Shown here piece after piece: positions 17,868 to 40,364 of a DNA stretch of 43,505 bases. How positions within the stretch are numbered: position 1 is the first letter of the stretch; every line of letters starts with the position of its first letter. The notes under the pieces were generated by a model that worked only from the letters and a program-made list of their open reading frames with translations, was not told where the DNA came from and searched no databases. The position numbers were made by a program, and so were the translations under genes. Origin of the DNA: Parcubacteria bacterium SG8_24 (GTDB lineage: Bacteria; Patescibacteriota; Patescibacteriia; SG8-24); contig LJNP01000003.1 in assembly GCA_001303185.1 (NCBI GenBank), positions 1-43,505 on the forward strand, written 5' to 3'.

Positions 17868-19374
<1,507 letters not shown>

Positions 19375-21014: not shown

Positions 21015-21091
21015 GGGCGTGTAGCTCAGTCGGTTAGAGCGTCACACTGATAATGTGAAGGTCGGTGGTTCGAATCCACCCACGCCCACCA
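21015..21091 (+). tRNA. tRNA-Ile(GAT)
   Basis: Acceptor GGGCGTG/CACGCCC, anticodon arm TCACA-CTGATAA-TGTGA, T-loop TTCGAAT, encoded CCA; promoter TTGTCA (20954)-N17-TATATT. Confidence 0.97.
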
Positions 21092-21138
21092 CCAAGAAAT
21101 CGAACGGCCGGTCCCGTAACCGGCCGGCTGACCGATTT

Positions 21139-21630
21139 ATGATCCTGACCACTACAGACATCGTCATCCGCCTGGTGATCATCACCGTTTTGGCTGCGCT
21201 CATCGGTATGGAGCGGGAATATCACCGACGGCCCGCCGGTATCCGTACTAACGTCATGGTCGGCCTGGGCGCTACGCTCATGACTATGGCCTCCATCCAG
21301 ACGCCATCACTATGGGCTGACGTGACGACCGTCGACCCGGGTCGGATCGCGGCCCAGATCGTCAGCGGCATCGGTTTCATCGGTGCCGGCATCATCCTCC
21401 AACGAGGCAGCAAAAGGGTGATCGGTCTGACTACCGCAGCCACGCTATGGGTAGTGGCCGGACTCGGTATAGCCGTCGGTATGGGACTATACACCGAAGC
21501 GGTGGCCGCCACCATCCTGGTATTCATCACCTTCATCCTGCTGACCCGCGTGGTGGTGGCCGTCAGGTCCTATGCCAAGAGGAATCCGCCGAAATTCGAC
21601 AGCGACTTCGCGGACCTCATCGAAGAGTGA
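21139..21630 (+). CDS. mgtC: MgtC/SapB family membrane protein
   Basis: IGMERE..RPAGIRT, DPGRIAAQIVSGIGFIGAGII, GLTTAATLW. Confidence 0.92.
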   Translation: MILTTTDIVIRLVIITVLAALIGMEREYHRRPAGIRTNVMVGLGATLMTMASIQTPSLWADVTTVDPGRIAAQIVSGIGFIGAGIILQRGSKRVIGLTTAATLWVVAGLGIAVGMGLYTEAVAATILVFITFILLTRVVVAVRSYAKRNPPKFDSDFADLIEE

Positions 21631-21718
21631 AGCCGTTTCAGTATTGACGGCCCGAGGTAGCTCAGTGGTAGAGCAGTGGACAGCACCCTGAGGGGTGCGG
21701 TCGTATCATATCCGCTCT

Positions 21719-21834
21719 AAACATTTCCCGGATCGTGGTCGTGCCGAGGTAGCTCAGTGGTAGAGCAGTGGACTGAAAATCCACGTGTCGCCAGTTCAAT
21801 CCTGGCCCTCGGCACCACGATCCGGTAAATGTTT
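21719..21834. repeat. 21-bp inverted repeat bracketing tRNA-Phe
   Basis: AAACATTTCCCGGATCGTGGT (21719-21739) versus ACCACGATCCGGTAAATGTTT (21814-21834), 20/21 complementary; TCCGCT direct repeat at 21711 and 21835. Confidence 0.9.
21743..21817 (+). tRNA. tRNA-Phe(GAA)
   Basis: GCCGAGG/CCTCGGC acceptor, GTGGA-CTGAAAA-TCCAC anticodon arm, GCCAG-TTCAATC-CTGGC T-arm, ACCA. Confidence 0.97.
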
Positions 21835-21921
21835 TCCGCTGGGGCCGCGTGTCTTCAGTCCAATCCTGGCCCTCACCGCCATTCCTGAAGCGGTTTTACT
21901 TCCGACATAACATGACAATTT

Positions 21922-21997
21922 CGGGGTGTGGCCCAGCGGCTAGGGCGCCTGCTTTGGGAGCAGGAGATCGCGAGTTCGAGTCTCGCCGCCCCGACCA
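21922..21997 (+). tRNA. tRNA-Pro(TGG)
   Basis: CGGGGTG/CGCCCCG acceptor, CCTGC-TTTGGGA-GCAGG, T-arm GCGAG-TTCGAGT-CTCGC, ACCA. Confidence 0.95.
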
Positions 21998-22008
21998 ACA
22001 AAAAATGC

Positions 22009-22082
22009 GCGGGCGTAGTTCAATGGTAGAACACTAGCCTTCCAAGCTAGCCACGTGGGTTCGATTCCCATCGCCCGCTCCA
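22009..22082 (+). tRNA. tRNA-Gly(TCC)
   Basis: GCGGGCG/CGCCCGC acceptor, CTAGC-CTTCCAA-GCTAG, U discriminator plus CCA. Confidence 0.97.
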
Positions 22083-36779: not shown

Positions 36780-37517
36780 ATGAAAAAGAAAGGCCAAGGA
36801 CATGGCGACGGGAGGGGTGGCAACGGGGCCACCGGGAAAAACGGACACGACACGGAGAAGACCCGCTATCGGTGCCGCTCGGCGGGCTGCGAGATGAGGG
36901 GCACGGCCGACATGATGTTCAACCTGCCGTGCAATCCCGGTCGGGTGACGGAAGAGGAACTGCTGGAGAAAGTGCTCTGTCACGCCTGTGCCTCTTCTGT
37001 CGCGTCCCTTGCCGGCAAGGAGCCCCGCGACAAGGGATCTGGCGTCTTCCCGCTCAGCCGGACCTTCGAGCTCCGACGTCGGCTCAACCACCGACGGTCC
37101 GAACGGCAGAAGGAGCTCGACGACTACCGCCGCTGGGTCGAGGAGAGCAACTACCGGAGGACGATCCGTGATTATGCCATCCGGTATGCCCAGGCCGAGG
37201 TCAGCGAACTCTTCGGTGACGGCTCATTGGCCGGCTCGCTCCCCCTGCCGCGGACTTCCGCTGCGCCCGACGGGTCCCTGTGCTGCGGACTGCCGATCGA
37301 GTGCTGCGGACACCACCGTCCGACCCGGCGTTTCCTCACCGTATTCGGTGAGGTCGTCGGCATCTGCGACCGGGCTGCCAGCGTCTTCATCGACGTCTTC
37401 CGTGAGCACGAGGAGACCGAGGGTTTCCGACGGCTCCTCTCCACGTCAGATCTGGAGATGGCCCGGCATATCGCGGCCAAGTGGCTCGGTATCGGCCGGA
37501 GCGGCGCAGGCGGCTGA
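36780..37517 (+). CDS. Cys-rich hypothetical protein, putative zinc-binding
   Basis: AAGGAG SD; CRSAGC...CHAC and CCGLPIECCGHH...ICD clusters separated by a charged helix. Confidence 0.7.
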   Translation: MKKKGQGHGDGRGGNGATGKNGHDTEKTRYRCRSAGCEMRGTADMMFNLPCNPGRVTEEELLEKVLCHACASSVASLAGKEPRDKGSGVFPLSRTFELRRRLNHRRSERQKELDDYRRWVEESNYRRTIRDYAIRYAQAEVSELFGDGSLAGSLPLPRTSAAPDGSLCCGLPIECCGHHRPTRRFLTVFGEVVGICDRAASVFIDVFREHEETEGFRRLLSTSDLEMARHIAAKWLGIGRSGAGG

Positions 37518-37546
37518 AAGCGGCCCCTCTGAAGGAGACAGACGGA

Positions 37547-37720
37547 ATGGTAAGGAAACTGATCGCTGCCGCCCTGGTCATCGGAGGTGCCGCAGCGATT
37601 CTCCTGCCTGGTGGTATCCCCATCATCCTCGCCCTTCTGGCACTGCACCGGGCCAAGACGGCCCGTCTCAAGACTGAAGGCGAGCTGTCCGGCGACCCTA
37701 CCCACGCCGAACAGGCTTAG
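37547..37720 (+). CDS. small membrane protein (57 aa, helical hairpin)
   Basis: MVRKLIAAALVIGGAAAILLPGGIPIILALLALHR; AAGGAG SD; terminator follows directly. Confidence 0.6.
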   Translation: MVRKLIAAALVIGGAAAILLPGGIPIILALLALHRAKTARLKTEGELSGDPTHAEQA

Positions 37721-37744
37721 GCCCCGACCTCGTCGGGGCTTTTT
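37721..37744 (+). terminator. intrinsic terminator
   Basis: GCCCCGAC-CTC-GTCGGGGC-TTTTT. Confidence 0.8.
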
Positions 37745-37766
37745 CTTATCCACAATCCGACCCATG

Positions 37767-37795
37767 TTGACATGCCCAGAGGTCGCTTCTACAAT
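37767..37795 (+). promoter_or_regulatory. near-consensus sigma70 promoter with no convincing CDS downstream
   Basis: TTGACA-N17-TACAAT. Confidence 0.75.
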
Positions 37796-37801
37796 TCTGG
37801 T

Positions 37802-38092
37802 CATCATCGGCCGTTTCAGCTCCCCATGGTGCCTTCCGACCATCGACAGGGCGATACGCCGTCGGAACGGTTGCGAGTCCGGTTAAGCACGATCATGAAC
37901 GGGGAAAAGGTATGGCCGCGCTGCCGCCGATCTGCGCGACATGCGCAGTGACCGGGCATCTTCTGCCCGGAAAAAGACGCGGCGACCCAGGCCATCTTCC
38001 CTTCCGGGGAAGCAACCCTCTTTTGCCTTATCCCTGCCTCTGTATCGAACGCTTGTTCCGGACCCGCAACCCTTCCGGCTGGCGTATTTTTT
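37802..38092 (+). ncRNA. candidate ~290-nt structured ncRNA, family unknown
   Basis: About 30-bp closing helix (37853-37882 with 38058-38086), inner helices, two apical hairpins and a terminal U-run. Confidence 0.5.
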
Positions 38093-38168
38093 GACCTCCG
38101 GACACGTTGGTTTTTAAATAGGTAAATGGTATGCTGACCTCGGATTCCGTAAGGAAGACCTCTTGAAT

Positions 38169-40364
<2,196 letters not shown>

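Follow-up and report, generated by a model that had tools for sequence, protein, structure and literature searches.

What occupies the stretch between positions 37767 and 38092 of contig LJNP01000003.1 from Parcubacteria bacterium SG8_24, a member of the Candidate Phyla Radiation (CPR, or Patescibacteria), and is it a gene in its own right or a leader of the DNA translocase gene ftsK that follows it? The window examined in the present study comprises positions 1 to 43,505 of this contig (43,505 nucleotides (nt), forward strand; assembly GCA_001303185.1), which belongs to a 1.12-Mb, 98.9%-complete genome. An earlier note had described the stretch as an unannotated RNA of ~290 nt with a 5' domain, a long rod and a forked tip, and had suggested examining its folding z-score, its matches in all of Rfam, its genomic copy number and the presence of the signal recognition particle (SRP) genes ffh and ftsY. 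Judged by comparison with its relatives, the element, hereafter the rod RNA, is a real conserved RNA with its structure under selection, and it represents a previously undescribed RNA family. Sequence patterns strongly support a gene of its own on the + strand, with its own sigma-70-type promoter and an end at the closing stem and U-run.

Structure and conservation of the rod RNA

A 299-nt stretch starting at position 37797 has a minimum free energy (MFE) of -139.1 kcal/mol, compared with -105.7 ± 5.3 kcal/mol in 200 shuffled sequences, none of which folded as well (z = -6.32), in support of the structure proposed by the earlier note. The reverse complement of the same stretch folds nearly equally well (z = -5.83), so the strand is not given by folding energy alone. 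The folded part covers ~236 nt (37853-38088; 156-254 nt in relatives) and forms a long imperfect rod capped by a three-way junction, with the following parts:

37853..37912, + strand: 5' strand of the rod, comprising the outer stem (37853-37867), a GGYUGCGR block (37869-37875), GUCCGG (37877-37882), the UU side of an internal loop, AAGC, CGAU and a purine-rich inner strand (helices of the MFE fold)
38024..38088, + strand: 3' strand of the rod, comprising a pyrimidine-rich inner strand, AUCG, GCUU, the UUU side of the internal loop, CCGGAC, a YGCRRCC block (38065-38071) and the outer stem (MFE fold and covariation)
37853-37860 with 38081-38088, + strand: helix GAUACGCC/GGCGUAUU (MFE fold)
37861-37867 with 38073-38079, + strand: helix GUCGGAA/UUCCGGC (MFE fold)
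37869-37875 with 38065-38071, + strand: helix GGUUGCG/CGCAACC (MFE fold)
37877-37882 with 38058-38063, + strand: helix GUCCGG/CCGGAC (MFE fold)
37913..37994, + strand: variable apical arm, a stem of UGGCC/GGCCA and UGCCGC/GCGGCG forked into hairpins 37932-37948 and 37952-37970 (MFE fold)
37996..38012, + strand: small hairpin CUUCCCU-UCC-GGGGAAG, whose 5' half is C-rich and 3' half G-rich (consensus YCCCG-CUU-GGGR)
38013..38023, + strand: single-stranded pyrimidine tract CAACCCUCUUU, 11 nt (no pairing in the MFE folds of either the window or relatives)

The MFE fold also holds UAAGC/GCUUG, CGAU/AUCG, UGGCC/GGCCA and UGCCGC/GCGGCG, so that all of the rod helices and both apical hairpins claimed in the earlier note are found in it. 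The forked tip exists in this genome but is the variable part of the molecule: across relatives the apical arm ranges from 0 to ~90 nt and carries one or two hairpins, and the 156-nt RNA of one genome (G012) lacks it altogether. What had been read as a large asymmetric pyrimidine-rich bubble is mostly a pairing of the purine-rich with the pyrimidine-rich strand (37894-37912 with 38024-38042), in which 20 of 20 pairs show two-sided changes in relatives; the small hairpin and the 11-nt tract do stay outside this pairing.

Relatives were searched for with a covariance model, R1, built from five sequences of the host's family that were found by BLAST against 60 relatives and fold into the same rod. 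A MAFFT alignment of 21 sequences has 90.1% of cells paired across the 29 pairs of the closing stem, whereas sliding the partners by 1-3 columns lowers this to 36-47%, and two-sided changes occur at 23 of the 29 pairs (0 of 500 shuffles were as high). The whole model of 62 pairs has 87.6% of cells paired versus 38-47% after sliding, with two-sided changes at 50 pairs, in an alignment of 17 forward-strand sequences (12 not used in model building) that is model-fitted and leans towards the model structure. The small hairpin shows two-sided changes at 7/7 pairs (81% of cells paired); the family members being kin, none of these counts is independent across members.

Conservation is unevenly distributed along the rod. 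The outer ~15 bp vary freely with covariation across relatives, and a near-invariant block consists of an A-U pair, a pyrimidine-pyrimidine mismatch, a GGCUGCGG/YGCAGCC helix, a one-base bulge and a 5-bp helix; inward of it lie the UU/UUU internal loop and then AAGC/GCUU. Seven positions (G20, G23, C24, G25, G216, C217 and C220) are invariant in the 21 sequences. From GGCUGCGG to the junction the 5' strand measures 38-45 nt in 14 of the 21 sequences, which indicates that rod length is held constant, and the two RNA ends pair into a ~50-bp rod with conserved irregularities. The small hairpin is found at the junction in nearly all homologues, and the pyrimidine tract reads (A)UCUUUU(C) in relatives, a motif that recurs in the alignment. 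An internal terminator formed by this hairpin and the U-rich tract was considered and rejected: in most members stem and U-run are not directly adjacent, and the terminator scan was silent.

The pyrimidine tract beside the hairpin is the sole conserved single-stranded element, as would suit a trans-acting base-pairing small RNA whose exposed (A)UCUUUU/C-rich tract pairs with purine-rich ribosome-binding regions of mRNAs, and in some members the tract resembles the 3' tail of 16S rRNA (GAUCACCUCCUUUCU), for example CACCUCAUCUUUCC in G002. Most of the conserved sequence, however, lies in the 50-bp rod, which seed pairing does not need, and the tract varies in both sequence and position. No target was identified; by eye the ftsK start region shows no more than 6 complementary bases, a non-significant number, and we regard such a role as distinctly unlikely.

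The assignment to the + strand, which the earlier note had rested on the promoter and the U-run, is backed by several lines of comparison. In the window the covariance model scores 202.6 bits on the + strand versus 50.4 bits on the - strand, with the same tendency in relatives, and the paired columns contain 62 G-U/U-G cells versus 22 A-C/C-A cells, an excess that fits the + strand as the RNA. In 12 of 26 loci the RNA is preceded by a promoter-like site with at least 9 of 12 matches (0/26 in the opposite orientation), and a U-run of at least four follows the stem in 12 of 26 (0/26 in reverse).

Gene boundaries, ftsK and distribution

The RNA gene lies between the closure of an upstream transcription unit and ftsK, in the following order:

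37547..37741, + strand: closure of the upstream unit, with a hydrophobic open reading frame (ORF) of 57 amino acids (aa) at 37547-37720 and a terminator at 37719-37741 (translation and terminator scan)
37767..37795, + strand: promoter of the RNA gene, TTGACA-N17-TACAAT (11 of 12 matches to consensus)
37802..37852, + strand: variable 5' leader with a local hairpin, CCAUGGU..ACCAUCG (hairpin in the MFE fold)
38087..38092, + strand: U6 run directly 3' of the closing stem (read from the sequence)
38127..38135, + strand: extended -10-like motif TGGTATGCT, the presumed ftsK promoter (TGnTAnnnT; below the threshold of the two-hexamer scan)
38169..40364, + strand: ftsK, DNA translocase (Pfam FtsK_SpoIIIE, FtsK_alpha, FtsK_gamma and FtsK_4TM)

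The terminator at 37719-37741 is canonical and ends the transcription unit upstream of the RNA gene. The promoter claimed in the earlier note is present and is the sole site in 37400-38400, where 0.2 sites are expected from shuffles; relatives carry TTGAC(-N7-TTGAC)...TACGAT/TATAAT at the same place upstream of the rod RNA. This promoter frequently contains a pair of TTGAC boxes separated by 7 nt (G009, G014, G023, G021, G004, G018, G010, G002, L115 and L116), which may represent a tandem -35 element or a regulator site.

The RNA start at ~37802 is deduced from the position of the -10 box. The ~50-nt 5' domain that had been counted as part of the RNA did not hold up, since the distance from the -10 box to the rod ranges from 12 to 78 nt in relatives and the intervening sequence is neither conserved nor alignable, which places this domain outside the conserved RNA; the leader is probably removed or functionally unimportant. 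At the other end the U6 run is present as claimed, and the rod followed by this run looks like an intrinsic terminator. A terminator scan covering stems of up to 20 pairs and loops of 3-8 did not list it.

ftsK follows the RNA on the same strand in 16 of the 17 first family loci, the exception being G014, and also in later checkable loci. Its ATG at 38169 is in frame with a listed ORF starting at 38163. In 24 of 26 loci a TGnTAnnnT motif separates the RNA from ftsK, mostly with an ATG after it that starts a basic N-terminal segment, and the motif also precedes ftsK in a sister family without the RNA. A promoter-like motif of its own for ftsK suggests that the RNA is a separate gene; the position upstream of ftsK given by the earlier note is correct and conserved, but the RNA is probably not simply the ftsK leader.

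The same adjacency could reflect a cis-acting element of ftsK, the rod and U-run forming a conditional terminator or processing site such that read-through from the strong upstream promoter tunes ftsK. Immediate proximity on the same strand would fit this, as would the 14 of 26 loci without a U-run of at least four, where termination may leak. Against it, ftsK keeps its promoter-like motif in nearly all loci and works without the RNA in the sister family, the RNA of G014 lacks ftsK as its downstream neighbour, there is no sign of an alternative (antiterminator) fold, and the rod is far larger and more elaborate than a terminator requires. There is in our estimation only a slim chance that this is the role of the RNA.

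A genome-wide search with R1 detected the RNA in 17 of the 24 genomes of the host's family, each with a single locus. An order-level search detected it in 16 of 23 genomes within the family and in none of 13 in the sister family. Inspection of the sequence upstream of ftsK added the RNA in three further genomes that the genome-wide search had missed (G015, G020 and G005); no rod RNA lies upstream of ftsK in G008, and the contig of G003 stops too early for a call. At least 20 of the 24 family genomes therefore carry the rod RNA. In a sample of the class R1 matched 0 of 150 other genomes, under strict filters and in a search that missed a true member; since class-wide searching rests on the five-sequence R1, and such searches missed the three genomes named above, distant homologues may exist outside the family. 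Three sister-family genomes have the terminator of the upstream gene followed by the ftsK promoter motif and a short hairpin, without an RNA gene between them. One BLAST match (L017) was discarded as a chance match in coding-looking sequence.

Other structured sequences were observed upstream of ftsK in CPR genomes. In the sister family (L107-L109) a conserved short hairpin, GCCUGUAAAAAUACAGGC, lies in the 5' untranslated region of ftsK ~30 nt before the start, right after TGGTACAAT. Two other CPR lineages (L043:1310-1460 and L034:1380-1500) share a promoter …GATTAGAGATAAT… before ftsK and have GC-rich, structured-looking sequence further upstream without an Rfam match; in L043 the 3' arm of a 150-nt hairpin holds the ftsK start codon, which suggests translational control of ftsK. 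A low-GC CPR genome (L029:1215-1385) carries a different rod of ~170 nt upstream of ftsK, its ends reading GUUGCG../..GUCGCAGC, followed by a terminator and the ftsK promoter. This rod scores at most 7.5 bits with R1 and has no Rfam match, and homology is not claimed.

Comparison with known RNA classes and elements

A scan of the window against Rfam 15 (4227 families) at the gathering score returned only the 16S rRNA and four tRNAs, with nothing on the rod. At E <= 10, 7 weak matches fell in 37650-38250, none of them on the rod (three on the upstream terminator and four of snoRNA type on the minus strand of the leader), and 12 fell on 19 homologue loci (63 kb), none on the element. The earlier description of an unannotated structured non-coding RNA is thus upheld within the curated families that this comparison covers. 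The rod RNA is not mentioned in the available portions of the literature on 6S RNA in CPR, on SRP, ffh and ftsY in Patescibacteria or Saccharibacteria, or on structured non-coding RNA discovery. Elsewhere in the window the 16S rRNA gene (17868-19374) is followed by tRNA genes at 21015-22079 within ~1.6 kb; there is no 23S rRNA match in the window, and the rRNA genes therefore appear unlinked.

Like 6S RNA (RF00013; ssrS), the rod RNA is a stand-alone, single-copy molecule of similar size (~160-250 nt) with paired 5' and 3' ends, a long irregular rod and a strong promoter of its own, and it adjoins a protein gene in the same orientation. Many 6S RNAs have a 3'-bubble hairpin, of which the small hairpin on the 3' side of the loop region is reminiscent. 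These traits would suit a functional analogue of 6S RNA, the rod mimicking promoter DNA and sequestering RNA polymerase holoenzyme, and the niche is not visibly filled, as RF00013 has no match in this genome (at E <= 10) or in 41 related genomes. That model is insensitive, however, detecting 6S RNA in 5 of 14 control genomes.

The earlier note had considered a second 6S-type RNA. No first 6S RNA was found in the genome, and RF00013 has no match at E <= 10 on the window region or on the 19 homologue loci either. The hallmark of 6S RNA is a large central bubble, single-stranded on both sides, between two duplexes. In the rod RNA only 0-6 bases of the 5' strand are unpaired at the junction, and the supposed bubble strands pair and covary. 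The arm that would correspond to the second duplex is dispensable, being absent in G012, and sequence is conserved most strongly far inside the closing stem instead of around a bubble. The rod RNA is moreover confined to one family, whereas a core regulator should also turn up in sister lineages. On balance a 6S-like function appears unlikely.

Three further possibilities, namely an SRP RNA, a miniature inverted-repeat transposable element (MITE) and a type I toxin mRNA, were suggested by the rod layout with terminal helices, by the long inverted repeat, and by the following ORF, whose start is buried in the stem:

37912..38094, + strand: 60-aa CxxC ORF inside the RNA (ORF listing; no Pfam match)

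Even taken together these three seem scarcely credible. Apart from 13 matches of 14-23 nt, the 299-nt query has no match in the 1.12-Mb genome other than itself, and 17 family genomes each show a single locus; a single-copy element is not a MITE or dispersed repeat, as the suggested copy count was to establish. The 60-aa ORF exists as described, but the idea of a fold-back toxin mRNA falls away, as the frame has no counterpart in 20 other homologues, and we judge it a chance ORF.

SRP RNA, either 4.5S or of the large bacterial type, is likewise a rod formed from both ends with a conserved element near the tip, and the rod RNA of this genome also has two terminal helices. Its hallmark is helix 8 (domain IV), which contains conserved internal loops and is capped by a GNRA tetraloop. 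The homologues of the rod RNA contain no GNRA-capped conserved helix, their conserved hairpin loops being GCUU, GUCU or UCC. Neither RF00169 nor RF01854 matches the element at the gathering score or at E <= 10; genome-wide, RF01854 finds nothing and RF00169 gives only a 17.5-bit match in coding-looking sequence (C13:3752-3823).

The proteins of the pathway were not found either. In this 98.9%-complete genome PF02978 (Ffh M domain) has 0 matches, PF00448 has two weak P-loop matches only (both ABC ATPases), TIGR00959 and TIGR00064 have none above 15.4 bits, and a six-frame search found no SRP-GTPase (DTAGR-type) motifs in coding frames. The absence of both ffh and ftsY from the genome, together with the lack of a model match and the non-GNRA loops, sets aside the SRP-like reading of the earlier note. 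Among relatives PF00448 matched in 2 of 61 genomes, both partially (model positions 4-55), and the closed sister-family genome G027 (1,167,441 bp) has no ORF with SRP-GTPase motifs. PF02978 found 0 of 121 genomes sampled across the phylum and 14 of 14 controls, a negative that may be a blind spot of the first-look search filter. The SRP pathway seems, from these searches, to be missing in this genome and its relatives. Absence of SRP is not mentioned in the available portions of the literature on SRP, ffh and ftsY in Patescibacteria or Saccharibacteria, and may already be known; the ftsY and ffh genes named in the part of PMC10768705 that was available carry host locus tags. If it holds, the absence of SRP could be of broader significance.

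Several other classes were compared. An end-formed long stem, a sequence-conserved helix, a pyrimidine-rich internal region and a 3' U-run are features of likeness to Y RNA, the partner in the Y RNA/Ro60 (Rsr) system. The TROVE domain (Ro60, PF05731), however, has no match in the genome (a Deinococcus control was positive), the Rfam Y RNA and YrlA models do not match the element, and no tRNA-like module is evident. Retrons, omega-RNAs and type III antitoxins were rejected, there being no reverse transcriptase, nuclease or repeat array nearby. The rod RNA resembles raiA, OLE, ROOL, GOLLD and similar orphan RNAs in having been found by conservation and covariation, in its restriction to a lineage and in having no known function at discovery. 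It differs from them in being smaller, in its confinement to a single CPR family, and in having no match to these Rfam models in the window or the 19 loci.

P0001 and possible roles of the rod RNA

The reading that we favour, tentatively and at a little under an even chance, is that the rod RNA is a stable protein-binding RNA acting in trans. It is suggested by a helix whose sequence is conserved with fixed irregularities, by the constant rod length, by an arm that can be lost and by the retention of the hairpin and tract. The RNA would work in trans as a protein-binding scaffold or decoy, with the sequence-conserved block of the rod as the docking site of the protein and the small hairpin with its U-rich tract as a second, functional site. 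The most economical candidate partner would be a protein, here called P0001, that is encoded just upstream and appears together with the RNA in one CPR family:

36780..37517, + strand: P0001, a 245-aa Cys-rich, zinc-ribbon-like protein, family-specific (conserved upstream neighbour of the RNA)

Relatives of P0001 were found in 12 of 23 family genomes and in 0 of 17 outside the family, on the same contig as the RNA wherever both were seen. An alignment-based scan of metagenomes recovered 7 loci with a P0001 relative, and in six of these the RNA follows on the same strand at a distance of 340-850 nt; in the seventh the downstream region differs. A single-sequence scan of the metagenomes found none, and viral contigs contained no P0001 relative. 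From this distribution the RNA and P0001 seem to have been gained together by the family, and P0001 is a possible RNA partner, as a circumstantial lead.

P0001 belongs to no Pfam family, the best match being the Rtf2 RING at E 0.071. A confident AF2 model (pLDDT 85.1, pTM 0.59) shows two Cys clusters joined by a long helix. No convincing structural relative emerged: a Foldseek search gave no PDB match at E <= 0.001, the best VIA Z was 4.1, and neighbours in the Atlas score at most 0.81. In some relatives the N-terminal Cys module is tandemly duplicated. The 57-aa ORF between P0001 and the RNA (37547-37720) is single-pass-like, and L114 has a comparable small hydrophobic ORF after its P0001 relative.

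Several observations weigh against a trans-acting, protein-binding RNA with P0001 as its partner. With the query used, P0001 was detected in just 12 of 23 family genomes and the RNA in at least 20 of 24, so that P0001 is either too divergent to be detected elsewhere or not an obligate partner. The structure searches gave it no recognisable RNA-binding fold. Gene order is generally conserved in families with small genomes, and adjacency to P0001 and ftsK may be functionally meaningless. Finally, with 14 of 26 loci lacking a clear U-run, read-through into ftsK is possible.

A stronger version of the protein-binding proposal, which we consider doubtful, holds that the rod RNA joins P0001 in a new ribonucleoprotein that originated in a single CPR family and was inserted between the upstream operon and ftsK. 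It would have done so in a phylum whose genomes sampled here yielded no SRP component and in which 41 related genomes gave no 6S match. If it were true, the target of the RNA-P0001 particle would lie in a core process, for example transcription, chromosome segregation or division, or membrane-protein biogenesis.

The CPR make up a large share of bacterial diversity, and their non-coding RNAs are barely known. In organisms with 1-Mb genomes each retained gene is likely to matter, and the rod RNA offers a concrete, testable entry to their lineage-specific RNA biology.

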